64,000 bases of DNA, from NCBI GenBank assembly GCA_951406725.2, contig OX597838.1:34534001-34598000 (forward strand), written 5' to 3'. Below are positions 10,691 through 56,208 of this stretch, piece after piece. This DNA is from Octopus vulgaris (lineage: Eukaryota). Under the pieces are notes generated by a model. That model was given only the letters and a program-made list of their open reading frames with translations, was not told the DNA's origin and searched no databases. The first letter of the stretch is position 1. The number at the start of each line of letters is the position of its first letter. Position numbers and translations under genes: made by a program.

Positions 10691-11081
10691 GTAGATCTTT
10701 CCGTCGATTTCCGTAAGAAAACATTTTTTTTACATATGGGCTTGCGGGAACTTTTGAAGTAATGAGAGCGAAAGAGACTAAGAGAAAGCGATTGTATGAC
10801 GAGGGAAGTTCTTTTGAAGTTACCGTGCATGGGAGCACACACACACTAACAGAAGCACTTCACTTACACAACATACTGTCTGTCTCCCACACCCCATCAA
10901 ACACACACACACACACACATGTCCATCAATGCTCCCATGCACGGTAACTTCAAAAGAACTTCCCTCGTCATACAATCGCTTTCTCTTAGTCTCTTTCGCT
11001 CTCATTACTTCAAAAGTTCCCGCAAGCCCATATGTAAAAAAAAAAAAGAAGTTTTTTACGGAAATCGACGGAAAGGTCTAC
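10691..11081. mobile_element. Foldback MITE with ~145-bp near-perfect inverted arms, TA-flanked
   Basis: TA|GTAGATCTTTCCGTCGATTTCCGTAA...TTACGGAAATCGACGGAAAGGTCTAC|TA; arms ~10691-10837 and ~10931-11081 around a CA-rich spacer. Confidence 0.9.
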
Positions 11082-19352: not shown

Positions 19353-19768
19353 TCCATACAGTTATCCGAAGGGTTTCTAAACGGTTATAATTTTGGTAGA
19401 GTGATCCCCTTTCCTCATACTTTGACCTTGTTAAAGAAGATATGTGTCACTGTAAAGCTACTGCAAAATTCAAATTTAGGCTCAGTGGAGATTTGAAAAG
19501 GAAGATTTCGAATAACCTGATTATTTGAATGCATAATTGATCAGGAAACGTAAAATTGATTGTATGCATATATGTATATATATGTATATATGTATATATA
19601 TATGTATATATATGTATATATATATGTATAAACAATTCATAAATAAGGGCAAACGAAAAAATTTCTAATGCCAAATATACCGAAAAATTGGACATATTGT
19701 CCATTAACCATATAATTTTTTCACAAAGAATTTTTTCAGTAAGAATCTCATTTATTTCTTTGCCACAT

Positions 19769-19828
19769 TTATCACTGACGAAGAGAGGGCTGTTATGAGC
19801 TAACCCTGAAATCGGTCCGATATGGTAA
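19769..19828 (+). ncRNA. Type I hammerhead ribozyme motif in a Penelope-like remnant
   Basis: Stem I TTATCA/TGGTAA, core CTGACGA 19775-19781, imperfect stem II 19782-19807, GAAA 19808-19811, palindromic stem III TCGG-T-CCGA, cleavage triplet ATA. Confidence 0.7.
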
Positions 19829-20451
19829 TAATGGAATTTGTTAGAAATTTCTGTCGACCTTTTTTCGAGTAGCGTGCGTATTGTGAAAAAATTATATGGT
19901 TAATGGACAATATGTCCAATTTTTCAGCATATTTGGTATTAAAAATTTTTTTGTTTGCCCTTATTTATGAATTGTTTATAAATTTAACCATTAAAGATAT
20001 ATTTGAATGCATAATTGATCAGGAAACGTAAAATTGATTGTATGCACATGTACACACAGTATATCATCATCATCATCATCAGTTTATGTCTGTTTTTTCA
20101 TGCTTGCATGTGTCAAGCACATTGACTCGCCACATATTGCAGTCGTTTGTAATCTTTCAACACTTCTTTTGTCTTCAGCCATAGGCTTTTCCTATTTGAA
20201 TTGTTTGGCACTATACACACGCACGCACACACACACACATTTATACAAACATTCAAGGCAGAACAAGCGTGCATGGTCCAGTGGTAAGGGTGTTACAACC
20301 ACGATCACGAGATCGTGGGTTCAATACTCGGATCGGGAAATGCGTTGTTTTCTTGAATAAAACATTTCATTTCACTTTGTTTCTGTGGTTACTTTGACAC
20401 CTGACGTGCGACACACCGCGCACCTGTTCAGGCAATATCGATTTGATGGAA

Positions 20452-37102: not shown

Positions 37103-37216
37103 ATGTTGTCTAGTCAGGAAATAATGAAGTACTATTCATTTTTTTTGACAATTTTTCTCTTTGCTACTACATTATGTTCCACTATTCCTAAACCAAAAGA
37201 CAGATCCATTGACAAG
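37103..37216 (+). CDS. CALU: Calumenin-like coding exon 1 (signal peptide)
   Basis: ttttcAG|ATG; MLSSQEIMKYYSFFLTIFLFATTLCSTIPKPKDRSIDK|GTAAGT; 114 nt, phase 0. Confidence 0.85.
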
Positions 37217-39064
37217 GTAAGTGGTTTTTGTTATAAAAAAAGTTTTATCGGCACAGGCGTGGCTGTGTGGTAAGAGGTTTGTTTCCCAACCATATGGTTC
37301 TGGGTTCAGTCCCACTACAAAGAATCTTGGGCAAGTGTCTTCTACTATAGCCTTGGGCTGAACAAAGTCTTGTGAGTAGATTTGGTAGACAGAAACTGAA
37401 AGAAGACCCTTGTGTGTGTATATGTTTGTGTCTGCTTTTACCCTCAAAATAGCTTGACAACTGATGTGTTTACCTCCCCGTAACTTAGGAGTTTGGCAAA
37501 AGAGACCAATAGTGTAAAGTACTGGGCTTAAAGAATAAGTCCTGGGGTTGATTGCTTCGACTAAAAAACCCTTTAAAGCCATGCTCCAGCATGGCCACAG
37601 TCAAATGACTGAAGCAAATAAAAGAATAACTCTTTAGCATTCAGATTATTTTGTCAAACACATTCCTTATTTTTCCAGATTGGTTTGCATTAATCCTGCA
37701 TTATTTCATAGCTTTGAGATTTCAATGATGTTGTTGTATATCATTATGATGACATTGCATGGTAAGTGTGAGAGGCCGAATCTGGTCAGTTTGAACATAA
37801 AACATAGAATATTTGGGTCGGATGGGGCCAGTTTAAAAGCCAAAGGGTCGATTCTTTTTGTAGCTTTGTTAGGCGACATTAACGACTTTATGGCAACTTT
37901 CAGATTGGTTGGGAATAAGGAAGGTGTTAGGGACCTGATCTGATGTATTGCAACAGCGTAGACTTGGCTAAAGACCCCCAACAACCAGATGGTCAGTCAA
38001 ATTGGATGTGGCTGTGTGCTTAGAAGTTTGCTTTCCAACCACATGGTTCCAGGTTCAATCCTACATTGTGGTATCTCAGGCAAGTGTCTTGGACCAACCA
38101 AAACCTTGCAAATAAATTTGGTTGGCCAAATCTGAAAGAAGCCTGTCGTGTGTGTGTGTCCTTTCCTGAACATCACATGGTAGTTCTAAATGAATGTTAC
38201 CATAATATATATTTCTTTACTACCCACATGGGGCTAAACACAGAGGGGATAAACAAGGACAGACAAAAAAAATAATGTTAGTCATCGTCCCTGGGTGGGT
38301 ATGAAGCACCAACCTTTCGGTTAACAGCTCAACGCGCTAACTGATTGCGCCATAGAGACCGACTGTTACCATAATATAAGTGGTGTCCTTCATTTCAAAT
38401 CTTTTGTGCAAATATCTCTGGTCATGGGGAAATGTTACTTTACTTGGAAACAGGTAAGGGTTGGTAACAGGTAGGAGATCCAGCTGTAGAAAATCTGCTT
38501 CAACGAAAATTTCATCCAACCCATGATGGCATGGAAGAGAGGAAACTCTGATATCCGCTGTATCTTTTAAATTTTCTACTACTACACCATGTACACACAT
38601 GCACACCTTTTAATTTGGATGTTAGCTTAGGTAGATGAGAATTGCAAGCCTAGATTTCACTTTTCTTAATATCACCTTATATAATTATAAAGCAGTTGGA
38701 ATAAACTTTGCTGAGAGAGAAGCAGGTTTAACCCTTTCAATACCAACCCGGCTGAAACTGGCTCTGAGGACAAATGTCTTGTTTTCATAAGTTTTGAATT
38801 AAAATCTTTCACCAAACCTTAGTCACAATTTATGTTCCTAACATTAGGTGAATGATAGCTAAGTTATTTTACAAAATTCTTTGTTATATTTAAAATTAAT
38901 TGAAAGAAACACAGAGCATCTCAAAATAAATACAGTAACGAAAGGGTTAAACTACTTTCTGCTAGGTTATGATTCCAAATAACTTAATCATTTGGCTACC
39001 ATCATGGGCACCATTGATCACTAAATCTGATTTATTTTTAAATATACTTGTCTCTGGTAAAAGT

Positions 39065-39345
39065 ATGTGGCCTAGTGATTAAGGTGTAGCTCTTGAAATC
39101 GCAAGATCATGGTTTCAATTTCCAAACTGGCAGTACATTGTGTTTTTGAGCAAAGCATTTCATTTCACATTGCTCCAGTCCACTTGGCTGTAAATGGGTT
39201 ACCCTGCAACTGATTGTTATCCCATTCAGGGGTAGCGTTGGCCTACCTGCCTAGCCATTGGGGTGGCATCATTCGAAAGCTCCAACAATGTGAAGAAGCA
39301 CATTGTAACCAGCAGTGTGTAACCACATCTCATAATCTGTTTGAT
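39065..39345 (+). mobile_element. tRNA-derived SINE family D
   Basis: GTGGCCTAGTG..TAAGGTG head and TTGAGCAAAGCATTTCATTTCAC core; related copies at 45730-46010, 29436-29548 (-), 39350-39597 (-). Confidence 0.7.
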
Positions 39346-40371
39346 ATTTATCTATAAAGGTAAAAGGTAGTTAGCTTCTTGAGTCCTGCTGATTCATAAG
39401 GGCCAGTTTCCATGGCATATATAATCCCCACTTGGAGGGGCCACTGGTCCATTGTACGATTACTCATTTTTGCCAGCTGAGTGGACTGGGGCAATGTAAA
39501 ATGAAGTGTTTTGCTCAAGAACACAACACGTCTCCTGCTCCAGGAATCAAAGCCACAACATGAGTCCAACACCCTAACCACTAAGCCACACGCCCCCGTA
39601 ATATTTATCTATGACCTTGTACCAATGTTAGAAAGTTGTCAGAAATGGTTGAGCACTTGAGTTAGTGTTTTACAATAGCCATTGGTCAGTGTTGCTCCAC
39701 TGGGCTTACAATTTAAAGATGTTGCAGGAATGACCATCCCATCTTGATTTCAAATCTAATGTACAGAAGACTATATTGTTCAATGCATTCTTCCTTTTTT
39801 AAAATAAGGTGAAAATTCTGGGTGATTTGATTACTATCTCTAAAGAGCTGAGTGATCATGTAAGGCTGCTGCCCCTATTGGCTTTTGATGTTGTTTATGT
39901 TATTGTTGATATTACTCAACAGAGCGTGACATCTTTATTATCTGGTCTTCATTTTCTGACCAGACATGTCCACCACTCTCTTTCAATTCCGCTAACAGCA
40001 TTTCGACCACTAAACCCTTAAAAGAAAAACCTATGTCGTACAATGGCATTTCTATTCCTCTACCAATTTCAAGACCTTTTGTTTTGTCTGCTATTTCTAA
40101 TATTACCGAGATGAGTAAGGTAGCAAGCTGGCAGAATTGTTAGCATGCCAAACAAAATGCTTAAGAGCAGTTCATCTGTTCTGAGTTCAGATTTCACTAA
40201 GGTCAGCTTTGCCTTTCATCCTTTCAAGTTTGATGAAATAAGTACCAGCTAAGTATTGTGGGTCAATGTGGTAGATTTTCTTATGGTAGAGAAATAGTGA
40301 GTTTTGGCTGCTATTTCTAAATTTCAGTATGTAGTGAAGCAAATTTCTTTGCTGAACCCGAATTATTATAA

Positions 40372-40411
<40 letters not shown>

Positions 40412-40691
40412 TTGTGTGTATATATTTATATGTGTATGTGTGTGTATGACGAGCTTCTTTCAGTTTCCCTCTACCAAATCCACTCACAAGGCATTGGTCA
40501 GCTTGGGGCTACAGTAGAAGACACTTGCCCAAGGCGCTGTGCAGTGGGACACTAAATCCAGAACCATGTAGTTGGGGGAAGCAAACTTCTTACCATATAG
40601 CCATGCCTGCTCAGTAGATATTTTATTTTGTTACTCAATGGCTTAATAGATATTTTCACCATTTTGAATATAGTTATTAGGTGGTATAATG

Positions 40692-41385
40692 GAATTCCGC
40701 CGAGGTCGACTTTGCCTTTCATCCTTTCGAGGTTGATAAATTAAGTACCAGTTACGCACTGGGGTCGATGTAATCGACTTAATACCTATGTCTGTCCTTG
40801 TTTGTCCCCTTGTGTTTAGCCCCTTGTGGGTAGTAAAGAAATAGGTATTTCATCTGTCACTACGTTCTGAGTTCAAATTGCACTGAGGCTGACTTTGCCT
40901 TTCATCCTTTCGGGGTTGATTAAATAAGTACCAGTTACGCACTGGGGTCGATGCAACCGACTTAATACCTATGTCTGGTCCTTGTTTGTCCCCTTGTGTT
41001 TAACCCCTTGTGGGTAGTAAAGAAATAGGTATTTCATCTGTCACTACGTTCTGAGTTCAAATTGCACTGAGGCTGACTTTGCCTTTCATCCTTTTGGGGT
41101 TGATTAAATAAGTACCAGTTATGCACTGGGGTCGATGCAATCGACTTAATACCTATGTCTGGTCCTTGTTTGTCCCCTTGTGGGTAGTAAAGAAATAGGT
41201 ATTTCATCTGTCACTACGTTCTGAGTTCAAATTGCACTGAGGCTGACTTTGCCTTTCATACTTTCGGGGTCGATTAAATAAGTACCAGTTATGCACTGGG
41301 GTCGATGCAGTCGACTTAATACCTATGTCTGTCCTTGTTTGTCCCCTCTGTGTTTAGCCCCTTGTGGGTAGTAAAGAAAAAGGTA
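40692..41385 (+). repeat. Tandem array (~4 units) of SINE family B body
   Basis: ~180-bp units ending GTGGGTAGTAAAGAAATAGGTA. Confidence 0.92.
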
Positions 41386-41482
41386 TAATCTCTTCCTTAT
41401 GGAAGGAAGTGTGATGTTGTGAGCACACAGTCTTTGGTTTCTGTCTTTAACATTTTTGCCTCTTCTATTTGTGTTTACACAG

Positions 41483-41613
41483 AAATTGAGTGATTTAGAT
41501 CATGAGACCAATGGCATTCACAATCCCGATTACGACCATGAAGCAATCTTGGGAAAAGACGATGCCAAAGATTTTGACCAACTTTCACCAGAACAAAGCA
41601 AAGAGAAATTAGG
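41483..41613 (+). CDS. CALU: Calumenin-like coding exon 2
   Basis: [44 protein letters not shown] matches the CREC YDHEAFLG..FDQL.PEESK.RLG motif; AG/GT boundaries; 131 nt, phase 0 to 2. Confidence 0.95.
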
Positions 41614-41711
41614 GTAAGCTGATATTTTCAATTTGTTCAACTTCGTTACTGTCTTTGATCGTCGACAAATGTGTTTTTTTTCTCTCTTGTGGTGAATGCA
41701 ACTCTTTGTCA

Positions 41712-42230
41712 CTGTTGCCGCTGCCACCACCACCACCATGATCTTCATCATCACCATCATCATTGCTGCCACCATCACCACCACCACCACCACCACCACC
41801 ACCATCATCACTGCCACCATCATCACTGCCACCACCACCATCACCACTGTCACCACCACCACCATCACCACTGCCAACACCATCAAAACCGCCACCACCA
41901 CCATCATCACTGCCACCACCATCATCACTGCCACCACCACCATCACTGCCACCATCACCACCATCATCACCGCCACCACTGCCAACACCATCATCACCGC
42001 CACCACCACCATCATCACTGCCACCACCATCATCACTGCCACCACCACCATCACTGCCACCACCACCACCACCATCACTGCCACCACCACCACCACCACC
42101 ATCATCACCGCCACCACCACCATCATCACTGCCACCATCACCACCACCATCATCACTGCCACCACCACCATCATATTTACCACCACCTTCTTCATCATCA
42201 TCATTACCATCATTTTCATCTTCATCATTA
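41712..42230. repeat. Intronic (CAC/CAT)n trinucleotide-based minisatellite
   Basis: CATCACTGCCACCACCAC-type units. Confidence 0.95.
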
Positions 42231-43599
42231 TTATTTAACCCTTTTGATACCAGTCCACCTGAGACCACTCTTGGTTGTATGATACAAATTGTAAACTGAT
42301 CTAAATGGAAAACTTCCAACAAAATTCCATGTTGGTTTATGTTCCAAATAGCAGCTAAAATAGTGATCAAGTTATTCCACTAAATTCTTCATTATTTTCA
42401 AAATTAATTGAAACAGAGATGGTGCATTTCTGCAGAAATGTTAATGAAAGGGACAACATCCATTTTTTAATTCTGGCATGGATTGGATGGATTGACAAGG
42501 TCTGGCGAATCCCAGAGCCGTGTCAAGTTCCAATGTCGGTGTTGGTATGGTTTCGGTGGCTGGATGCCCCTTCTAACACCAACCAGTCAATTCAGTGTGT
42601 TCTCAGTGATTTTTTTTTTTCATGCCACTGGCACTGGTGAGGTCACCAAACACTTTCAAGATGAGAAAATGGAAAACAGGAAAAGCTCCATGAACTAAGT
42701 TGAGGAAATATTTGAGAGAGGGCACAGTGGTTCTGTGCCAGGTTTTGAGAGGCTCCAGTATGATAGAGGGACAAGTGCAGGTGATTTGCTACAGAAGGGA
42801 TACATGCAGTGATGGATCAGTCCTGAGCATTGCAAGTTGTCTGTCCTCTCTCGGTTCTTTGTCATTTATTCTTTAACCCTTTAGTGTTCAGATTATTCTA
42901 TCAAGCATAATGCTTATTGATTCCCATTGATTTGAATTAATCATGCATTATTTCATATCTTCAAGATCTTGATGGTGTAATTACTTAATGTAGAATAACA
43001 TTGTAGGGTAGGTGTGAGAGCCTGGATCTGGTCAGTTTGAATATAAAACAGATTAACTATTTTGGCCAGATATGGCCGGTTTAAATACTAAAGGGTTAAA
43101 ACTCAGCACCTTGAGATCAGCCATCACCACTTCATCCCATGTGTTCCTGGGTCTCCCTCTTCCACAAGGTCCGACTAGCAGTTATTCATGCAACTGTCAT
43201 CCATGCACATCACGTGACCAAACCAGTGTTGTCCTCTCTCTTGCACACTACATCCTGATTCCTCTTACGTCCAGTTATTTTTCTCTCAATACATTAGCAC
43301 TTTGTCACGCATGCACACATGCAGCATATTGCTGTGTTCATCATCTGCTACTGATTCCCTGCTACTCCTGGCAGTTTTGCTCCACTCAGGCAACAACCCT
43401 CCAACCCGTAGGTCTGTTTTGGGTTGTCATTGCTGGTGAGGTTTTTACAAAGTTGAAGTGCAAATCTTACCTTAACATCTTTTAATCAACTTTTATGACA
43501 TGCTGAGGAAACATTAAGCCTATTCTTTGACGTAGCAGTCCCCACACAGCACAGCAAATTCATTGCATTTTTTTTATATTGTTCCTTTTGTTCATTTAG

Positions 43600-43796
43600 A
43601 AAAATTGTTGACAAAATGGATAAAGATCGCGATGGTTATGTTACCGAAGAGGAACTGAAAAATTGGATTAAATATGTCCAGGATAAATACATCGTCAATG
43701 ATTCAAATGAACGCTGGAAAGACTATGAATTTCTGGACACTGATAAACTGGACTGGGAAACATTTAAAAAGAAAACCTATGGATTCACAGAAGAAG
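43600..43796 (+). CDS. CALU: Calumenin-like coding exon 3 (EF-hands 1-2)
   Basis: KIVDKMDKDRDGYVTEEELKNWIKYVQ...LDWETFKKKTYGFTEE; 197 nt, phase 2 to 1. Confidence 0.96.
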
Positions 43797-44120
43797 GTAT
43801 TTACATTGCTCTGTCGTTTTACAGTCTTCCACCATTCTACTAGTTTCAGTCTTTTACCTATTACTTGGTTCCAGTCATTGGACTCTGCTCTGGCAGAGGT
43901 ACTGATAATGTCTAGGGCAGTGGTTTTCAACCATTTTTTGTCTGTGGATCCTTGTGGATTTTTTACCAATGGTCCCCTTCTCATTTTACTTGGATGAACC
44001 CTCCCAGTCATTCAGGTTCTGGGTTCAGTCCCACTGCATGGCACCTCAGGCAACTGGTTTCTTTCTAAGCTTTGTGAATGGATTTGGTAGACAGAAACTG
44101 CAAGAAGCCCATTGTGTGTG

Positions 44121-44161
<41 letters not shown>

Positions 44162-44470
44162 GTAAATACACACACACATTTATGTGTGTCCGTGTGTCTG
44201 TTTGTCCCCCCCCCTCCTCCCATCACTTGACAACTGATGTTGGTGTGTTTACTTCCTTGTAACTTAGTAGTTCAGCAAAGGAGACTGATAAGTACCAGGC
44301 TTAGAAACAATAAGTCTTGGGGTCGATTTGTTTGGCTAAAACCCTTCAAGGCAGTGCTCCAGCATGGCTGCAGTTCAATGACTGAAACAAGAAGGAAAGG
44401 ATAGGGTGCAAGGCACGGCTGTTTTTGCTTTTGTGTTCACCGGTTAATTAAGTCCTTTTTCTACATTCAG

Positions 44471-44637
44471 ATATTAAACCAACCGACGAGAAAGCTGTCT
44501 ACAAAGAAATGATCACTCGTGACAAGAGGCGGTGGGCCTACGCTGACTTGGATAAAGACAACCACTTAACTAAAACTGAATTCATGCACTTCCTCCATCC
44601 AGAAGAAGCTGACCACATGAGAGACATCGTTGTTTTG
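44471..44637 (+). CDS. CALU: Calumenin-like coding exon 4 (EF-hand 3)
   Basis: YKEMITRDKRRWAYADLDKDNHLTKTEFMHFLHPEEADHMRDIVVL; 167 nt, phase 1 to 0. Confidence 0.96.
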
Positions 44638-47600
44638 GTAAGACACTTTGATAGTATGGCAAATGTGGTTTAGGGCGTGTCGGCGAGCTGGCACAAACGT
44701 TAGCATGCCGGGTGAAATGCTTAGCGGTATTTCGTCTGCGTTACGTTGTGAGTTCAAAATCCGCCGAGGTCGACTTTGCCTTTCATCCTTTCGGGGTCGA
44801 TAAATTAAGTACCAGTTACGCACTGGGGTCGATGTAATCGACTTAATACCTATGTCTGTCCTTGTTTAGCCCCTTGTGGGTAATAAAGAAATAGGTTTAG
44901 GGTGTGTCTATCTGGGAGAGGTTGGTCACAAGAGAAATATTGTTTTAGTTGTATGCCAGCGCTGCCTTGGCTGGCTTCTGTGCCGGTGGCACTTTAAAAG
45001 CACCAGCTGATCATGGCCGATGCTGGACTCCCCTGGCACCTGTGCAGGTGGCACGTAAAAAGCACCCACTACACTCGCGGAGTGGTTGGCGTTAGGAAGG
45101 GCATCCAGCTGTAGAAACTCTGCCAGATTCAGACTGGAGCCTGGTGCAGCCCCTGGCTTCCCAGAAGCCCGGTCGAACCGTCCAACCCGTGCTAGCGCGG
45201 AAAATGGACGTTAAACGATGATGATGATATAAATTCCACCATGGATCTATAGAGTATTGACTTCTCACTGGAAAACATACCTACGCCAAGAGGTCTTTGT
45301 TTTTTGTGATTTTGTAATTGGCTGATGATGTGCTGTGATCATTGAATGCCCATGGGATTTTGCACCTAGGAAGTTCCCCTCCGAGGCACAAATCTGGGCA
45401 ACGGTGTTTGTGGAAGACCAGCAGTGGCCCATGCATACCAGCCTCCCCTCTCCATGCCACCAATGTTATTCAGGAGAAAGGCAAAGGCCAATACAGCTGG
45501 GCACCAGTGGAGTGAACTGGAGCAACGTGAAATGAAGTGACTTGCTCAAGAACACAACACACAACCCGATCAAGGATTTGAACTCATAACCTCATGACTG
45601 TGAGTCTGACGCTCTAACCACTGAGCAATGCTCCTCCACTTTAATATACTTGGAAGTATATTATGGTTGCTAAAGGAAATATGGTGTCCCTACCAGCAAT
45701 TAATATAATTATATATATATATATTGTAAAGGTACGTGGTTCAGTGGTTAGGGTGTTGCAGTCACAATCACAAGGTCATGGTTTCAATTCCCACCCAGGT
45801 CAGTAGTGCATTGTGCTGCTTGAGCAAAACACTTCATTTTGCGTTGCTCCAGTCCCCTCAGCTGTAAATGGGTAACACTGCAATGAACTGACCTTCTGTT
45901 CAGGTGGAATGTTGGCCTTAACCAGCAGAGTATCTTCTGAAAACTACAACAGTGCAAGGAAGTGTATTGTGACTAGCAGTGTATAACAACATCCAATTGC
46001 CTGGTTGATACAGTAATATATATATATATATTGCTAACCGTCACCATAAGGTTAGGATATCGTCTTTCTAACTATGTGGTTGCGAGTTCGATCCCGTTGT
46101 GCAACACCTTAGGTAAGTGTCTTCTGAGTTGATCAGTATCTTGTGACTGGAATTTGGTGACGGGAAATTGTTCTGAAGCCTGTTATATATTTGTTTGATT
46201 ATGTTTGTGGTGTAGTTACCAGTGTATCTTATACTGTCAAATAGATTGCTTGTTTATTCACATTATTTGACTTCATCATCATTTAATGTCCGCTTTCCAT
46301 GCTGGCATGGGTTGGACGATTTGACTGAGGACTGGCGAACCAGATGGCTTGCACCAGGCTCCAATCTGATCTGGCAGAGTTTCTACAGCTGGATGCCCTT
46401 AATGCCAACCATTCCGAGAGTGTAGTGGGTGCTTTTATGTGCCACCAGCATGAGGGCCAGTCAGGCGGTATTGGCAACGGCCACGCTCAAATGGTGTTTT
46501 TTACGTGCCACCTGCACAGGAGCCAGTCCAGCGGCACTGGCAACAACCTCGCTCGAATGTTTTTTTATGTGCCACCGGCACAAGTGCCAGTAGGGTGACG
46601 CTGAACTTAATCATGCATCTTCAAGTTTTCGATTCTGTGATTGTTAATTTTTAGAATGTCATTGTGATTTTTAGGATGACAGATGTGATAAGTTGGACCT
46701 GGTCATGCATGGCTGGTTTAACCCTTTAGCATTCAGATTATTCTGCCAAATGAAATGCTTATTTGTGCACATTGTTTTGAATTAATCATGCATCATCTCA
46801 TAGCTTCATGATCTCAGCGATACGCGTGTTTTTAGAATGACATTGTAGGGAGATGTGATATGTTAGGTCTGGCCAGGTGTGGCTGGTTGAACAATTTAGT
46901 GTTGAGATTACTCGCCAGTGCTGCAGGTGGCACATAAAAAGTATCATTTGGGCGTGGCCGTTGCCAGTTCCACCAAACTAGCCCTCGTGCCTGGGGCACG
47001 TAAAAGCACCCACTACATTCTCGGAGTGGTTGGCATTAGAAAGGGCATCCAGCTGTAGAAACTCTGCCAGATCAAATTGAAATTTGGTTCACCAGACTTC
47101 AGTCAAATCGTCCATGCTTGTGTGTCCTCTGCATTCTTACGTGTGCTTTACTAGGTGTGTTATCATCACAGTCATTTAGCGTCTGCTTTCCATACTGGTA
47201 TGGGTTGGATGGTTTGACTGAGAGATTGCTAAACTGGAGAGCTGCACCAAGTTCCAGTCTGATTTGGCATGGTTTCTATCGCTGGATGCCCTTAACTAAC
47301 ACCTACCACTTCAAGAACGTAATGAGTGCTCTTATGTGCCAGTTGCGTGACACCGGCATTGGCTACAACTACAATTTTACTTGGTTTGACAAGGTTTCTC
47401 AAGCACATCATCATCATCATCATCATCATTTAGCGTCCGCTTTCCATGCTAGCATGGGTTGGACGGTTCGACCGGGGTCTGGGAAGTCAGGAGGCTGCAC
47501 CAGACTCCAGTCTGATCTGGCAGTGTTTCTACGGCTGGATGCCCTTCCTAACGCCAACCACTCCGTGAGTGTAGTGAGTGCTTTTTACGTGCCACTTGCA

Positions 47601-47868
47601 CAAGTGCCAGACGAGGCTGGCAAACGGCCACGATCGGATAGTGCTCCGTTGAAAGCACCATCTGATCGTGATGTATTGCTAACAGTCTCGGTCACTTATC
47701 ATCACCTCCATGAGGTCTGATGATTGGAGGGTGATTTTTTTACGTGCCAGTTACACAAAACTGGCATCAGCCATGACTATGATTTCACTTTCATGTAATT
47801 GGGAATTTTCATAAATCTGACCGTCTATGATGTAGTACTTTATTTAATAATCTTTTACTAAATTCCAG

Positions 47869-47929
47869 GAAACCCTCGAAGACATCGACAAAGATAAAGA
47901 TGGAAAAGTCAGTCTTGAAGAATACATAA
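47869..47929 (+). CDS. CALU: Calumenin-like coding exon 5 (EF-hand 4)
   Basis: ETLEDIDKDKDGKVSLEEYI; ccAG|...|GTAAGT; 61 nt, phase 0 to 1. Confidence 0.96.
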
Positions 47930-47980
47930 GTAAGTTTCTTTATTATTGAATTATTATTGAATTTTGAAATGATTAATATA

Positions 47981-49386
47981 CAGGGTTGGTCAAAAGTCAC
48001 CCAACAGTAAATCAAAATTCCATAAATAGGCAAAGGAGTGACTGTGTGGTAAGTAGCTTGCTTACCAACCACATGGTTCTGGGTTCAGTCCCACTGCATG
48101 GCACCTTGGGCAAGTATCTTCTACTATAGCCTCAGGTTGACCAAAGCCTTGTGAGTGGATTTGGTAGATGGAAGCTGAAAGAAGCCCGTCATATATATGT
48201 ATATATATATAATGTTTGTGTGTCTGTGTTTGTCCCCCCAACATCACTTGACAACCGATGCTGGTGTGTTTACGTCCCCGTAACTTAGTGGTTCGGCAAA
48301 AGAGACCGATAGAATAAGTACTAGGCTTACAAAGAATAAGTCTTGGGATTGATTTGCTCGACTAAAGGCGGTGCTCCAGCTGGCCACAGTCAAATGGCTG
48401 AAACAAGTAAAAGAGAGTAAGAGTAAATACGTAACATGTAATGAAACTCTCACTGGCGGTAACTGTTTCGAAACGCTGAATGAGTGTCTTTCTGCAGTTT
48501 GTGTGACTGGCCAGAATTTAATACTTTGCTGTTTGTGCAAGGTGGTGTGCGTCCCCATTATGCCAAAAAGGTACATGATCTGTGAGACACTTTGCCTGCA
48601 GGTTGGATTGGACATAGAGAGCCTATTGAATGGGATCCACATTCGTGTAACCTCACACCAATGGATTTTAGTATTTGGGGAATGATGAAAGATCAAGTTT
48701 TTAATAGAAAACCAAGGACTCTAGCTGAGTTGCAAGTTGCCATAGCAACTGAATTTGAACTAATTAATGCAAAATAAGGTACTTTGTCATACTATACTCT
48801 TTACTCTTTTACTTGTTTCAGTCATTTGACTGCGGCCATGCTGGAGCACCGCCTTTAATCGAGCAACTTGACCCCGGGACTTATTCTTTTGTAAGCCCAG
48901 TACTTATTCTATCGGTCTCTTTTGCTGAACCGCTAAGTAACGGGGACATAAACACACCAGCATCAGTTGTCAAGCAATGCTAGGGGGACAAACACACACA
49001 CACAAACACACACACGCATATATATATATACATATATACGACAGGCTTCCTTCAGTTTCCATTTACCAAATCCACTCACAAGGCTTTGGTCGGCCCGAGG
49101 CTATAGTAGAAGACACTTGCCCAAGATGCCACGCAGTGGGACTAAACCCGGAACCATGTGGTTGGTAAACAAGCTACTTACCACACAGCCACTCCTGCAC
49201 CTATCTGTAATTCTGTTTTGACTCGAATGGAAAAACGTGTCGCTCAAGAAGGACTTCAGTTTGAACAATTTTTCATGATGTTTCATATTTAGACGCTTGT
49301 ATTAAATTCATTCAGTTGTCAAACACAAATAAATCTAGGAATTAAATGGTTTTGATTTACTGTCAGGTGACTTTTGGCCAACCCTA
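47981..49386 (+). mobile_element. Deleted Tc1/mariner (maT/rosa-like) transposon with two nested SINEs
   Basis: TA-flanked TIRs CAGGGTTGGTCAAAAGTCACC..ACAGTAAATCAAAA / TTTTGATTTACTGT..GGTGACTTTTGGCCAACCCT; transposase relic WIG...EWDPHSCNLTPMDFSIWG (WPPRSPDLTPLDF-like) at 48592-48777. Confidence 0.9.
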
Positions 49387-50541
49387 TATGTAAAGAAATC
49401 TTTTATTGTTGAATAAGCTTATTGTAAAGTTCTGTTGTAGCTGCTAACGGCCACTCAAGCCCATTCTGTACTCTTATCATTGTATTGAGTAATCTAATTT
49501 CTAATTTCTGATCATAACTTTGGTCCACTCCTACCACTGTAGAAAATAATATAGTTTCCAGGAATTATTTTGGTCTAAACTGCTGTAATTATATCTTTAA
49601 TCCATGCTGTACTTCTTTGCTCGTGTATACAGCTGAGTAGCAGTGATAAAATTCGAGCCTACATGGCTTTGACACCTTTGTGACTTGAAAACAAAGATTT
49701 CATGAAGGTTGTAGTTTTGCCGAAACAACCTTGAGTCCTACCTTCTCAATTATTGACTCTTTGAGCATTGTGCTTTAGAGAAAGATGAATTATTGGTCAA
49801 TAACCCAAGCTGTTTTTTTTTTATAAATTGCTTGTACTTCTTAAAGACAACAGGTTATAGAAAACTGCATGAACTTTGCTGTTGCGTTAAGTCATGCATT
49901 TGCAAGGCCCAAGATGTTATGAAATTTAATATTGTAACAATTGTTAAAAAACAGGGAACAGTTTTTACATTCTGAGTTCAAATTCTGCCAAAGGCAACTT
50001 TGACTCTCATCCTTTTGAGGTCAATAAAATTAACACCTGGGGGGTCAATGTAATTCTACGAAATTGCTGGCCTTGTGCCAAAATTTGAAATCAATATTGT
50101 AACAGTAGTTTCGCATTTATTGGAGCCTAAGATGTGAAATTTAATAGTGTGATGGTAGTTTTACGTCTGTGAGGACCCAAGATGTTATGAAATGTTAACA
50201 AAAAGACTCTTTCGTTTGTTTTCTTTTTAAACAAATTATTCCTTCAGCTAATTCATTTGTTTTGTACATATTTTGAACAGTTTGAGACAAACAAATATTT
50301 AATGCTGTATTTACAACGTTCTGTATAGTTTATAAAATTCCACTTTGTCACTTGTGCATGCAATTCCAGCAGGTTTTCTAACTCACTAAACTTACCAATA
50401 TTCCAACAGACAAAACTGAATATTCTGGAATTTGTTTTTCTTTTCGAAATGTCTTGCCAAGGTTTGGTCATGCTTAGCAAGTTAAGTGATAGTTACTACC
50501 ATTTGTATTGAACTATTTCCTAGTATTAATATTTACAGGGT

Positions 50542-50845
50542 GAAGGCACATGGCCTAGTGGTTAGATCAACGAGATCGCGATCGAGGGATCGCAGGTTCG
50601 AATCTGAGACCAGGCGACGTGTGTGTTTATGAGCGAAACACCTAAGCTCCCCGTGGCTCCGGCAGAAGGTAATGGCGACGAACTTCCGCTGACTCTTTCG
50701 CCACAAATCTCATTCTTTCCTCCTGCATCTTGCAGCTCACCTGTGATGCACCGGCGCCCCGTCCAGGTGGGGAACCTATGTGCCAAGGAAACTGGGGAAC
50801 TGGCCCTTATGAGCCAGGCGTAGCTTGAGAAGGAACAAACAATAT
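50542..50845 (+). mobile_element. tRNA-derived SINE family E; related copy at ~60996-61375 (-)
   Basis: TGGCCTAGTGG A box, GGTTCGAATC B box, shared GAGCGAAA.CACCTAA..GCTCC.CG.GGCTCCGGCAG. Confidence 0.75.
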
Positions 50846-51074
50846 TTACAGGAATGTGAGAGCAAAATGTCAAACGTATTGCTGTGTTCAACAGCTAAAC
50901 ACGGTACTAAACACAGGCGCAGGAGTGGCCGTGTAGTAAGTAGCTTGCTAACCAACCACATGGTTCCAGGTTCAGTCCCACTGCGTGGCATCTTGGGCAA
51001 GTGTCTTCTGCTATAGCCGGGCCAACCAATGCCTTGTGAGTGGATTTGGTAGACAGAAACTGAAAGAAGCCTGT

Positions 51075-51127
<53 letters not shown>

Positions 51128-53148
51128 TTGTCCCCCTAGCATTGCTTGACAACCGATGCTGGTGTGTTTACGTCCCCGTCCCTTAGCGGTTCGGCAAAAA
51201 AGACCGATAGAATAAGTACTAGGCTTACAAAGAATAAGTCCTGGGGTCGATTTGCTTGACTAAAGGCGGTGCTCCAGCATGGCTGCAGTCAAATGACTGA
51301 AACAAGTAAAAGAGCAGAAGAGAGTACTATGGTCAGCAGTAACTAAAGGCAATACTACGGTCGGTAGTAACTAAAGCATAGTGTTGTGTTGAATAGTAAC
51401 AGCACTCTGCAGTGTTGCTAATCATGTCTACAAATGGCATCATTAGAGAGAGAGAGAGGCTACGTCAGCAAGCTGGCAGAATCGTTAGTGTGCCAAACAA
51501 AATACTTAGCGCCAGTCCTTCCAGCTTTGTTCTGAGTTCAAATCCTGCCGAGGTCAACTTTGCCTTTCATTCTTTCGGGGCTGATAAAATAAGTACTGTT
51601 TGAGCACCGGGGTCTCTTGTAATTTATTATCCCCTCCCTCGAAAATTGCTGGCCCTGTGCCAGAATTAGAAAGAACTCTAGAGTGGGGCCTGGGCATTTA
51701 ACTGGCAGAATTGTTAGAACATCAGACAAAATACCTTGTGCTGTTTGTCTTGGTTCTTTACATTCTGAGGTTGATTTTTCCCTATTAATGTAATACTATA
51801 TTATATTATACTGACTGACCCCTGTTTCCTTAAATTTTCTGGTGTTGTGCCTAAATTAGAAAAAATTGTTACAGAGACACTAAGGCAGAAAGCTGGCAGA
51901 ATCGTTAGCACATTGGGCAAAATGCTTAGTGGCATTTCATTGGTTTTTACGTTCTGAGTTCAGATTCTGTTGAGGTTGACTTTGGCTTTTCATTCTTTTG
52001 AGGATCGGTAAAATGAGTACCAGTTGAGTACTGGGGTCAATGTAGTTGACTTGACTCTTCTGCTGGTCTGGTGCCAAAATTTGAAGCCAATATTACACAG
52101 AGACCCTAAACTTATTGTTGGCAGTTGTTCCTCTTCATGATTGATGTTGGCTGTGACATGTTACAGAGTGAAATACTTGATCTAAAATTATGACATGAAG
52201 TTCAGCCGACAGAAGCCCGTGAGAGAACCTTTTATGTGGCCTCTATGCCTGCTAGAAATAGCAGCTGAATGGCTAATGTGTACAGTTTCCTTCATACCAT
52301 GTTAATTAGTTAAGGCAGCTATGTTAGTGTCTTGCATATGCAAGTAGGTTTCTATCTAAAGAAGGTCAACCTTTATCTAACTGTTGCAGATCCTTACTGC
52401 AAGTTTGGACCCTGATTTTGAATGACCTTAAATGGATTGGCTAAATTGTTAAGTACGTCAGAAAAAGAAGCTTTGCAGTATTTGTTCCAGCTCTTTATAT
52501 TCTGAGTTCAAATCCTGTCTAAGTCAACTTTGCCTTTCATCCTTTCGGCTAAAATATATATAGCAGTCTGGAACTGGAGTCAAAGTTACTGGTTTTCTGC
52601 TTAAGTTAGAAACAAAATATTTGGCACATAAGTTCAAATAATAGGAATGGTTTCATTGGTCTTTACTGAGTTGTTATGATTTTTTTATTATTATTATTGT
52701 GTTATTACTTTGCTTGGGAGACTGGCAAGAGTTGGCATTTGGCCACATAAGATCTGCCTCAGTAAACTCTGTCTGACTCATACAAGTGTGGCAAAGTGGA
52801 TGTTGAGACAGTGATGATGTGTTCTCGTCTACTTGATGTCTGTGACGTAATTTAACAACTAACACCTGACCCTTGTAAGCATTTGGATCAAGTCTCTTTC
52901 CTGAGGAGCACTTGGTATCTTGATGCAGCAATCTACAAATTGTGGGTTCTTCCTCTTGCTCTCAAAGGCCCCTTAAAAGTCCCTACTGATTGAGGCCTCT
53001 CCTACTCTAACCTATGCCATATAAAAAGATAAATACATCACCTTCGTTTAATTATGTTCCTCCCTTCTACTAATGTAACAGTGACAAAGTTGTTTGGTGA
53101 AATTGTAATAATTCTACTGTTAATTGGAATGTTAACTTACGTTCATAG

Positions 53149-53360
53149 CTGATATATACGGAAATGAAGATGAAGATGATGAGGATGAAGATGACCCAGA
53201 TTGGGTCAACGAGGAAAAGGAGCAGTTCCACAATTTCCGTGATAAAAACAAAGACGGCTTCTTGGACAAAGCCGAGGTGACAGAATGGTTGATTCCCGAG
53301 GAGTTTAATCACCTTGATACTGAAGTATCTCACCTTGTGAGGACGTCTGATGTGGATCAG
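53149..53360 (+). CDS. CALU: Calumenin-like coding exon 6a (alternative, acidic; EF-hand 5 and start of 6)
   Basis: Open frame TDIYGNEDEDDEDEDDPDWVNEEKEQFHNFRDKNKDGFLDKAEVTEWLIPEEFNHLDTEVSHLVRTSDVDQ; AG/GT boundaries; 212 nt, phase 1 to 0. Confidence 0.9.
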
Positions 53361-53398
53361 GTGTGTAATAGAGCATTGCCGGTGCAATGCATGAGAAA

Positions 53399-53867
53399 CT
53401 GCTCAACAAACTTATAGAATTTTAACACTTCGAGCCTATTTCATGTAGAAAGTAAAGCAGTGTAGCAGAAAGCTGATGACGGTTCGTCTCTTGTGATTTC
53501 TTCCAGTTCCCCAAAAAAAAGACAGATCTGGAATCAATCATTTCATACCTTTCCTCTTGTGGCACTTATCTACCAGACATTTTACTGCTGACTTTTTTGA
53601 TAAAATAGACAGAACCTCAAGAATATAACACATGGCCATTGAAAGGATTGTGCAAAGAGAACTAATTATTTTTTTATTTATGTCAACATTAGCTTCTCGT
53701 ACAAGGTTGCTAAATTTACTATTGTCTTCTCAATCTATTTGTAAAATTAACTGAATTTTGTATAAAAATTTGAAAATTTTCTTCTCTGAAATATATATAT
53801 ATATTTATATATACATTTCTTTTAAAAAAAATTGAAGTATTGTGTATTCAATGAGTTTGTTGAGCAG
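53399..53867 (+). promoter_or_regulatory. Long-range intronic RNA stem between duplicated exons
   Basis: CTGCTCAACAAACTTAT (53399-53415) pairs with ATGAGTTTGTTGAGCAG (53851-53867), 16 Watson-Crick pairs plus 1 G-U; function inferred. Confidence 0.65.
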
Positions 53868-53922
53868 ATATTTTGACTTGATTTTTTGACGTATGTTTTG
53901 ATGACGGCTTTGCCATTTGTAG

Positions 53923-54125
53923 GTGACATGTGGCCCGGGGATAAGGAGGGAGAGCCAGAACCCGATTGGGTTAAAGGTGAGCGCGAGCAGTTCTCCAACT
54001 ATAGAGACAAAAATGGTGATCATATGATGGACAAAGCGGAAGTGAGGGAATGGCTTCTTCCCTCTGATTACGATCATTCAATTGCCGAAGCAAGCCATTT
54101 AATTTATGAGTCAGATAAGAACAAG
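53923..54125 (+). CDS. CALU: Calumenin-like coding exon 6b (alternative, canonical-type)
   Basis: [68 protein letters not shown]; 203 nt, phase 1 to 0. Confidence 0.95.
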
Positions 54126-56103
54126 GTTTGTAACAGTGAACACTACTGCTTGTCCTTGCCCTTGTTTTAAGGTTTTGTGGTTGCACTTAACTGAAAGCAG
54201 GCTGTTTATTGTTGTTTTAATGTGTTTTCTAATTCTGTTTTCTCTCTCTTCACTCTAACTCTGTAACAATCTTTCTCACTCTCCTCTCCGTCTTTGAGCT
54301 ACTCTGCTATGTTATTTCATGGAATTCATAATAATTAATCGCTCTCTATTCCCAAGCTGACAAAATCTTTAGCATGTCAGGTAAAACGCTTCAAGGCATT
54401 TCTTGTGGCTCTGTGCTCTGAGTTCAAATGCTACCCAGGTCAACTTCACCTTTCATCTCGCGGGGGTCAGTAACCAGCCTTATGAATCCCGAGTTCAAAA
54501 ACTAAAAAAAAAAAAAAAAATTTGGCCCTTTAGCATTCAGATTACTCTGTCAAATGTAATGCTTATTGATTCACATGGTTTTGAATTAAACATGTAATAT
54601 CTCATAGCTTTGAGATTTCAATGATGCAATTTGTTTATTTTAGAATGTAGGGCTGGTGTGAGAGATCAGATCTGTCCAGTTTGAACATAAAACAGGTTGA
54701 ATATTTTTTTGGCCTGATATGGCTGGTTTAAATGCTGAAGAGTTAAACTGCTTTTGGCAGTATAAGGGCCAATAGTATTTAGGGTTTTTTTTTTCCTCTG
54801 TAAGAAAAATGAATTACCTTTGAAAAATCTCTAATATTTAAAACCTTTTTTTCATATTCTATTTCATGAAATTCCATTAACAGAAAAACTCCTTTAGATT
54901 TATTTTCTTCTGATGTTGTCTCTCCTTGCATTTTCTTTATGGTGTTGGTCTCCTTGGTGAGCTTTGTTTGTTACCCTATATATTGTGTGTGTGTGTGTGT
55001 GTATGATAATTAGAGCACATGGCCTGATGGTTTAGGGTGTCACATTCATAACCACAAGGTTGTGGTTTCAATTCTTCAACTGGGTAATGCGTTGTGTTCT
55101 TGAGCAAAACAGTTAATTTCATGTTACTCTGCAATCACTTCAACATTTGATGTGTGGGAAACCACGGCCCCTGTACAGGTAATGTTCATTTGGAAAAAAA
55201 GGGAGTGAGGGTTAAAATTGCATATATTATGAAACTTCTCATGTTGAACTTGTGCATGCTAATGGATTATATATTTACTCCTCACTAGACACACACACAT
55301 TGGCGTTTACTGATGTGACACCTGAATTTTTCTACACCAGAAGAATTTCAATCTTATTTAAGGCTACAATTCAAGAGGGTATTTAGCTTTAAGGACTGGA
55401 CTTGCTCCATCTTTCTACTCTTCTGGGACCTTAACTCTTTTGGTACCAAACTGTCAAAGACTGCCCTTCATTTAATGTTACAGACTCTAGGTTTTAAAGG
55501 GATCTAAATTTCCTTTTAAATTTTATGTTATATTATGTTCCAAAGATAATTATTTTTAATATTATTTAAAAAATTGACAGACAAACTGTATATTAACTGA
55601 AATATGATAAAAGGGTTGGGCCTCACTGGCTGAGGTGTTGGGGTTTGCTGTGCTTGAAAAGACACGTCAAACTAGATAGAATTATGATCATCCATACATA
55701 CAGGCATGCCCTTTGCAGGTGCCATGTGAAATGCACTACATATTGGTGCTGCGTAAACACACTTGTGCTGGTGGCATGTAAAAAGCACCCAACACATTCT
55801 GTGAATTGGTTAGCATTAGGAAGGACATCCAACTGCAGAAACCATGCCAAAACGGCTGGAGTCTGGACAGCTGCCCAACTCGTGTCAAACTCTCCAACCC
55901 ATGCCAGCATGGGAAATGGACATTAAATGATGATGATGATGATCTATATGGCTGTTCAGTTTCCAAAGTGTTAAACTGATCATGCCCCTTTTATTCAGGG
56001 GAGTAGAAACTTAAAGAAATTCATTGTTATGTAATGTATAATTAACCATTTCCAGCTCAGCTTGTCCAAAGATTATATTTCTGTTTTTTCTTTCTCTTTA
56101 CAG

Positions 56104-56208
56104 GACGGTAAATTATCCAAAAATGAGATCCTGGACAAATACGATCTCTTTGTTGGCAGCCAAGCTACGGATTTTGGTGAAGCTTTGAAGTCTCATGATG
56201 AGTTTTAA
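56104..56208 (+). CDS. CALU: Calumenin-like last coding exon with HDEF ER-retrieval signal
   Basis: [34 protein letters not shown]; joined CDS is 325 aa with 6b or 328 aa with 6a. Confidence 0.97.

Follow-up and report, generated by a model that had tools for sequence, protein, structure and literature searches.

A predicted long-range RNA stem in the intron between two alternatively used calumenin exons of Octopus vulgaris

The window analysed here, a stretch of 64,000 nucleotides from the Octopus vulgaris genome, holds a calumenin/reticulocalbin gene with two homologous exons, 6a and 6b, and the intron between these exons is predicted to fold into a long-range stem. Folding models and comparison with relatives argue that the stem represents a real pairing potential and that it is probably functional. 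Our preferred reading, which we hold tentatively, is that of a cephalopod RNA bridge biasing the choice between 6a and 6b, with decay as a back-up. RNA structures that steer either/or exons are known; what is new is such a stem at the octopus calumenin pair.

Sequence similarity, Pfam and translations placed the host gene in the CREC family (calumenin/reticulocalbin), with multiple EF-hands and a C-terminal HDEF. Protein matches in Octopus agreed with the initial annotation, which had taken the host to be a mollusc: an Octopus vulgaris protein named calumenin-B-like isoform X3 mapped onto the window exon by exon, and an Octopus bimaculoides protein named Reticulocalbin-3 (P0002) showed 97% identity with exon 6b. 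Exons 6a and 6b stand in tandem, each runs from phase 1 to phase 0 and has its own GT and AG sites, and the two exons with their 562-nt intron are held within about 1 kb. Exon 6a encodes an acidic N-terminal tract, EF-hand 5 and the start of EF-hand 6. The features discussed below are the following.

37103..56208, forward strand: coding span of the CREC gene, placed by tblastn of P0128, by the 97% match of exon 6b to P0002 and by translations; the start boundary is approximate
47869..47929, forward strand: exon 5, constitutive, phase 1 at its end; joint 47929 to 53923 (GT..AG) in 4/4 runs, and the retrocopy
53149..53360, forward strand: exon 6a, 212 nt (3n+2); loose ends from 6a to 7 in X1 and X11, and retrocopy L002
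53361..53922, forward strand: intron between the alternative exons 6a and 6b, 562 nt, GT..AG
53373..53390, forward strand: predicted 7-bp local hairpin between the 6a donor and the stem; probability ~1.0 with exons included
53399..53433, forward strand: 5' arm, core 53399-53415 plus inner extension to 53433; from folds, kept in relatives
53832..53867, forward strand: 3' arm, inner extension from 53832 plus core 53851-53867; from folds
53868..53922, forward strand: stem-to-acceptor stretch, 55 nt, AG-free before the acceptor; from AG positions and the colinear fit of P0003
53923..54125, forward strand: exon 6b, 203 nt (3n+2), homologous to 6a (55% over 60 aa)
56104..56208, forward strand: exon 7 (last exon), coding part

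Homology, phases, joints in RNA contigs and a retrocopy together bore out the earlier proposal that 6a and 6b form an either/or pair. Among the joints listed for RNA-type contigs, that of exon 5 with 6b was present in all four runs and that of 6b with exon 7 in three of the four. Among the loose ends listed, exon 6a continued into exon 7 in X1 and X11, with the letters of the parent gene at the junction. The retrocopy (L002; G000:C7:99815884-99819101, minus strand) is a processed, 5'-truncated copy on another contig, which comprises exon 5, 6a, 7 and ∼1.3 kb of 3' UTR and lacks 6b. It is 96% identical to the parent in 6a, where 7 of 212 bases differ, and it differs also just behind the junction; since the RNA junction carries the parent's letters, it was assigned to the parent gene and not to L002. 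The structure of this copy implies that germ-line cells contained the 6a isoform. No 6a-6b joint, nor any joint on the narrow stretch, was found among those listed for the four runs, three of them of RNA type (by record or by guess); as contigs lose rare variants and show presence but not absence, the missing 6a-6b joint is weak evidence. The unspliced 6a/6b intron was assembled at a depth of 12-18 in RNA-type runs. As far as contigs can show, 6a and 6b are used one at a time.

Inclusion of both exons shifts the frame, both being 3n+2, and introduces a stop 101 nt before the last junction, a distance that fits the 50-55 nt rule for nonsense-mediated decay. Decay following frameshift and early stop would thus provide a second route to apparent exclusivity. 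At the 6a donor (window 53361-53370), GT follows again at +3 and at +5, and splicing from the +5 GT would bring 6a and 6b into one frame. GT-Y/G-TGT is the sequence of each of the four 6a-type donors seen. A shortened 6a followed in frame by 6b is annotated in a Crassostrea angulata protein (P0010, calumenin-like isoform X3), which reflects either real double inclusion or a gene-model artefact.

Pairing of 53399-53415 with 53851-53867 over 17 bp, reported in the initial annotation, was confirmed as 16 Watson-Crick pairs and one G-U (53413-53853). The two inner extensions proposed there, 53417-20/53846-49 and 53427-33/53832-38, were both present in the minimum-energy fold, which contained a further inner helix (53423-25/53840-42) and brought the total stem to 31 bp. 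Predicted probabilities were 0.99 for the 17-bp stem and 0.97, 0.92 and 0.66 for the inner helices, and the core stem kept its 0.99 whether the intron was folded alone, together with exons or at 20 C. The distances given earlier were also right: 435 nt are looped out, 38 nt separate the donor from the stem, and 9, 22 and 37 nt separate the stem from three TGAC adenosines.

Shuffled sequence did not reach such a stem. The longest helix in 400 dinucleotide shuffles was 15 bp, so that 0/400 reached 17 bp, and the end-to-end duplex had an energy of -52.1 kcal/mol versus -30.9 +/- 4.3 in shuffles (0/1000). Comparison of the whole-intron fold with shuffled controls, proposed in the initial annotation as a check, pointed the same way with a z of only -2.13 (0/100). 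Real DNA of this genome is nonetheless well supplied with such stems: in the window, 14 of 113 tiles of 562 nt hold a stem of at least 17 bp, the 6a/6b-intron stem included; 12 of the other 13 tile stems have arms with at least three copies in the window. End-to-end duplexes that were equal or better occurred in 9 of 226 window tiles. Within 47930-56103, each arm is the other's best partner (-35.8 versus -20.1 and -24.8 for the next).

The hairpin at 53373-53390, absent from the initial annotation, is missing from the intron-only fold, and in the models it competes with looser pairing to the 6b acceptor region. Its 5' strand and the 6b pyrimidine stretch at 53907-53913 differ by one base and could compete for one partner, the long-range form being ∼13 kcal/mol worse in the model. 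An outer zipper seen in the intron-only fold (53368-93 with 53892-920) was discarded: it vanishes when exon sequence is included, and it loses two pairs with the letters of X20, a run from a related octopus, on the 5' side.

The arms were judged at the outset to be unlike any repeat elsewhere in the window, and the genome agreed that they are not a repeat family. The arm 17-mer has four exact matches in the 2.8-Gb genome (one for the reversed pattern used as control), of which two are the arms themselves and the other two share with the intron only a TA run. Terminal inverted repeats of a MITE, the origin that the initial annotation had named as fatal to its proposal, were not borne out: MITE or DNA-transposon ends were ruled out by the four exact arm matches, the lack of interior copies and flanks that differ between the two sides. 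When the whole region was searched against DNA by a method that skips very common words, no second copy of the intron appeared other than a TA-rich piece. Rfam gave no match over the intron, its two matches (E 2-2.5) lying outside the intron and far below gathering score. We also rejected a snoRNA reading, for which there was no Rfam match and whose box-C-like motif at 53474 does not survive in X20. In intron 3-4, inverted SINE-like arms were present in the end-only fold but absent from the full-intron fold, and were dropped as an in-gene counter-example. Elsewhere in the window, long inverted repeats at 19682-19925 and 10724-11043 (45 and 110 bp) are probably transposon ends; that at 19682-19925 has only its two arms in the window.

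Conservation of the arms above intronic background, as anticipated in the initial annotation, was found for the 5' arm relative to the looped-out part (X20, P0123 and P0124). The comparison stopped short of the 3' arm, as the X20 contig does not cover 53745-53909 and X12 does not cover the intron, and none of the 151 exon-6-like proteins examined has a cephalopod leader reaching it. The exon 6b of X20 carries both residues that separate P0002 from the window there. Over 53332-53738, X20 departs from the window at 44 letters and has 38 gap letters; the displayed changes, 35 of these 44, end at 53660, and the remaining 9 were assumed to lie beyond. None of the 31 paired 5'-arm bases is changed, versus ∼40 of 256 aligned loop bases (Fisher p 0.012); the contrast has p 0.052 when a badly aligned 36 nt is left out, and p 0.15-0.23 for the 17-nt core alone. 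All four changes within 53361-53448 fall on bases that are unpaired in the hairpin-plus-stem model (p 0.053), and the single change within the hairpin falls in its loop.

A second view was provided by predicted proteins whose reading continues out of exon 6a into the intron, a comparison blind to third codon positions. One of them, P0123, is sister to the window's 6a, comes from an octopod more distant than X20 and differs at 10 of 70 residues in exon 6a. Where it reads on into the intron, 17 of 19 codons match, including all 7 codons over the 5' arm, and it ends at the same stop; the probability of this match would be 0.06 at an assumed neutral divergence of 15% and 0.0004 at one of 30%. In P0124, which is cephalopod-like and still more distant, the last five codons fit 53395-53409 with one change, a C to T at 53407 that would leave a U-G wobble pair. 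A fit of this quality occurred in 2/300 shuffles, in 0/∼300 window pieces and, in a parallel test, in 1/72 unrelated leader peptides; every other site in the intron needs at least 4 changes. Chance is ∼1 in 70 to 1 in 150. The arm starts at +39 from the donor in the window, at +39 in P0123 and at ∼+44 in P0124.

On the acceptor side, P0003 extends 19 codons upstream of exon 6b; it lines up colinearly with 53868-53924 and is identical over the final six codons. The fit requires 15 minimal changes against a null mean of 29 (0/3000), and the distal 13 codons alone are equalled in 214/5000. P0123 likewise retains the 27 nt that precede 6a (window 53124-53150), matching at 7 of 9 residues; sequence next to alternative exons is often conserved as a protein-binding site. 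Coding read-through of 6a was rejected as the cause of conservation. The three changes of X20 in that region are two replacements and one silent change, and the P0124 tail differs in frame, so the constraint looks to be on nucleotides. A Fox site was likewise rejected as the conserved partner, the TGCATG at 53388 being changed at 53393 in X20 and P0123, and the donor-covering partner described below (53876-84) is not evidently kept in P0003. No compensatory change was seen in the comparison between species, which covered the 5' arm; pairing is the putative cause of its conservation.

Both exon copies were found in gene models of Ylistrum, Solemya, Elysia, Crassostrea and the annelid Ridgeia, and two tandem copies in 3 of 60 metagenome loci (L012, L020 and L030), the rest being spliced, single-copy or too short. 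In a 28-row tree, which omits L020, L030 and most unnamed matches, the nine first copies formed one group (SH-aLRT 92, not starred); in a 48-row tree, with two named rows skipped, the first copy of L020 sat among second copies. A duplication in octopus only was rejected (p-AU 0.0006), but one in cephalopods only was not (p-AU 0.078). Judged by these sequences, the exon pair appears to be ancient and lophotrochozoan, and no traceable stem is as old as the pair. Outside cephalopods, L020 and L030 lack a duplex at the same distances (p 0.88 and 0.41). A weak duplex was detected in L012 (-25.1 kcal/mol, p 0.034, outer pair +40/-61), with a probability of 0.13 or 0.00 in full folds; one of 18 control introns scored p 0.006, better than L012. 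Control L049:580-2454 is a constitutive intron of a single-copy orthologue, with an end-spanning stem of short tandem repeats (p 0.006). In L030 (4605-4804), the 6b-type exon contains two in-frame TAG stops and the 6a-type exon is open, from either the loss of one exon or an assembly error.

The initial annotation had read the stem as a steric device that prevents 6a-6b joining. Stem and hairpin would shorten the path so far that U1 and U2, bound at the 6a donor and the 6b branch point respectively, cannot cooperate; stem plus donor-side hairpin would then form a virtual mini-intron whose ends are not engaged together, and folding would enforce either/or use in cephalopods, in place of competing selectors or a distant branch point. 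A study of Dscam exon 17 reportedly combines steric hindrance with RNA structure. We consider steric exclusion doubtful here, mainly on distances. Candidate branch adenosines are 53876, 53881, 53889, 53901 and 53904. The last two are favoured: they sit at what we take to be the usual branch-point distance from the acceptor, and only they can be A in P0003, if it is colinear, 53876, 53881 and 53889 not being kept. Linear distances from the donor are 516-544 nt, the nearest upstream AG is at 53866, and the AG-free zone measures 53 nt. After folding, effective distances become 47, 52, 60, 72 and 75 nt, respectively, or 31, 36, 44, 56 and 59 nt with the hairpin collapsed.

According to the available parts of PMC5740500 and PMC7969005, the steric limit from donor to branch is ∼50 nt. 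The adenosines named in the initial annotation give 47, 60 and 75 nt, so that only 53876 falls under 50, and those kept in P0003 lie above the limit at 72-75 nt (56-59 nt with the hairpin). Modelling of the yeast A complex accepts a linker of 42-85 nt, at least 10 nt from the donor and at least 20 from the branch point (PMC12350175, accessible sections); this geometry is found for 53889, 53901 and 53904, not for 53876 and 53881. By these models the geometry appears permissive for splicing at the likely branch points, and the stem is probably too loose to block 6a-6b joining alone. A block would explain why contigs of three RNA-type runs contain no 6a-6b joint despite the intron depth of 12-18, but this absence carries little weight because contigs drop rare variants. 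The spacing of the 5' arm looks held (+39, +39, ∼+44), the 55 nt behind the 3' arm are colinear in P0003, and L012 has its weak duplex at +40/-61, all of which would suit steric exclusion, as would the 31-59 nt reached with the hairpin collapsed; against it, the kept 53901/53904, at 72-75 or 56-59 nt, stay within the 42-85-nt window that the accessible yeast work allows (PMC12350175), and two other animals keep the exon pair without a stem.

An RNA bridge is the account that we tentatively place first, while granting it slightly less than an even chance. By looping out 435 nt, the stem would bring the stretch behind the 6a donor beside the 6b branch/acceptor stretch, and the two joined stretches would act as one control unit biasing the choice of 6a or 6b. 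Stem formation in vivo is predicted from the folding models. With the stem formed, short pairings are predicted to mask one of two sites, the 6a donor (53354-62 with 53876-84) or the branch/acceptor region of 6b. In the best fold with exons, the stem is extended via a three-way junction and the 6a donor is paired with 53876-53884; in an alternative state that lies ∼5.6 kcal/mol above it, the branch and pyrimidine region of 6b is covered instead. Proteins could tip the balance between donor-covered and acceptor-covered states by tissue, and nonsense-mediated decay would remove the rare 6a+6b product. The donor-covering helix had a probability of 0.91-0.96 with the stem in four contexts holding 6b sequence, and of 0.22-0.44 in three of these four when the arms were forced open. 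Forcing the arms open changed the overall openness of donor, branch and acceptor little (∼2 kcal/mol at the donor), and helices are predicted over the branch region of the constitutive intron 3-4 too, so the masking predictions are soft.

The bridge competes with the idea, to which we give the same low probability as to steric exclusion, that the pairing is incidental: protein regulators and decay would then produce exclusivity, and the 5' arm would be a protein-binding element by the weak 6a donor. Decay would be available for this, both exons being 3n+2 with the double-inclusion stop 101 nt before the last junction, and frameshift on double inclusion is a property of 60% of human clusters (PMC5740500, as far as its available text goes). 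The 14 window tiles, out of 113, that hold a stem of at least 17 bp, and an exon pair older than any traceable stem, also speak for this reading. However, 12 of the 13 other stems derive from repeated sequence, whereas the 6a/6b-intron stem is single-copy; the observed changes avoid paired bases; and chance would have had to place a near-perfect complement at the far end of the arm's own intron (0/400 shuffles).

Two further readings are less probable again. It is quite improbable that the stem is a zipper aiding 6a-6b joining, with unproductive splicing tuning the calumenin level, or an ADAR platform affecting splicing. Geometry fits the yeast definition for 53889, 53901 and 53904, and a GT lying four bases inside the intron would bring back the reading frame, but no 6a-6b joint was listed for the contigs. 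Cephalopods edit RNA heavily, which speaks for an ADAR platform; against it, the X1 contig has 0 other letters across the whole intron and X11 has 0 over the 5' arm. A-to-I editing in the stem, which the initial annotation had suggested looking for, was thus not detected as majority editing in X1 or X11, contigs being blind to minor editing. Very improbable indeed is a docking site of the Dscam, serpent or ATE1 type, in which one arm would pair either with the other arm or, in its place, with a selector from a flanking intron. The intra-intron helix R3R4 of ATE1 is half of such a pair, and a weak arm-like stretch exists before 6a (-13.1 kcal/mol), but no competitor within 47930-56103 comes within 10 kcal/mol of the stem, and neither the 200 nt upstream of 6a nor those downstream of 6b exceed shuffles in pairing with the arms (p 0.16-0.92). 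We rank the bridge ahead of steric block and incidental pairing alike, followed by zipper or ADAR platform and, last, docking.

At the mutually exclusive exons of FGFR2, both arms of the IAS2/ISAR stem reportedly lie in the intron between IIIb and IIIc; with this placement, FGFR2 would share with octopus a long-range stem with both arms in the intervening intron. In the available part of PMC2471395, the FGFR2 stem activates IIIb and represses IIIc. That stem was tested by mutation, in contrast to the octopus stem, which belongs to another gene in another phylum and is known from sequence and folds; and a Fox-type GCAUG lies by the FGFR2 stem, whereas the octopus TGCATG is present but broken in two relatives. 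Human ATE1 offers a second comparison (PMC7797038, partial text): R3, in the intron between 7a and 7b, pairs with R4 just before 7b and favours 7a. There R4 covers the pyrimidine tract and competes with R1, whereas in octopus 55 nt separate the core from the acceptor, and 47930-56103 offered its arms no R1-like competitor.

Vertebrate OGDH 4a/4b (PMC7969005) and 57 human clusters (PMC5740500) are described, in the sections accessible, as steric-hindrance pairs with distant branch points. OGDH resembles the octopus case in its either/or exons and calcium-related protein, and the ∼50-nt limit of such pairs was the model of the initial annotation. In the same sections, however, their branch point is 25-46 nt away from the donor along the linear sequence and the AG-free zone is long, versus more than 500 nt and a 53-nt zone in octopus. 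Yeast zipper stems (RPS17B and others; PMC12350175, accessible sections) likewise link donor and branch sides, with a linker of 42-85 nt, but they occupy constitutive introns and are mostly thought to aid splicing (RPL28 being an exception), whereas removal of the octopus intron means frameshift. The parts available of three reviews (PMC11802352, PMC7404189 and PMC10790352) list bridging, looping out and masking and do not describe exclusion by a structure-shortened intron; none of four steric-model terms was found in PMC4691838.

In the literature searched (open articles mainly, with supplements and splicing databases outside the scope), we found no paper on the mollusc calumenin exon pair, and the available parts of PMC12070547 and PMC8373072 held nothing relevant to it; the event may be catalogued in supplements or splicing databases. 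The tested cases of structure-steered either/or exons that we found come nearly all from insects and vertebrates. If true, the octopus stem would be a compact mollusc case separating opposite predictions of one geometry, bridge or zipper versus steric block.

Vertebrate CALU is also a calumenin with two homologous either/or exons. Its pair, according to the available text of PMC4494069, encodes EF-hand 1, arose in jawed vertebrates and is ∼70 nt apart, in contrast to the octopus pair, which encodes EF-hand 5 and the start of EF-hand 6; these positions suggest that the octopus pair is a separate duplication. Present in bivalve, gastropod and cephalopod gene models and in those of one annelid, the pair would parallel the independent CALU EF-hand 1 pair. 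It swaps EF-hand 5 and the acidic tract of an ER calcium-binding protein, and the 6a and 6b isoforms may, from their residues, differ in calcium binding. Against the Pfam EF-hand, exon 6b alone gave no match and exon 6a gave weak matches. In the EF-hand 5 loop of octopus 6b (window 54009-54044), a His stands where relatives carry Gly.
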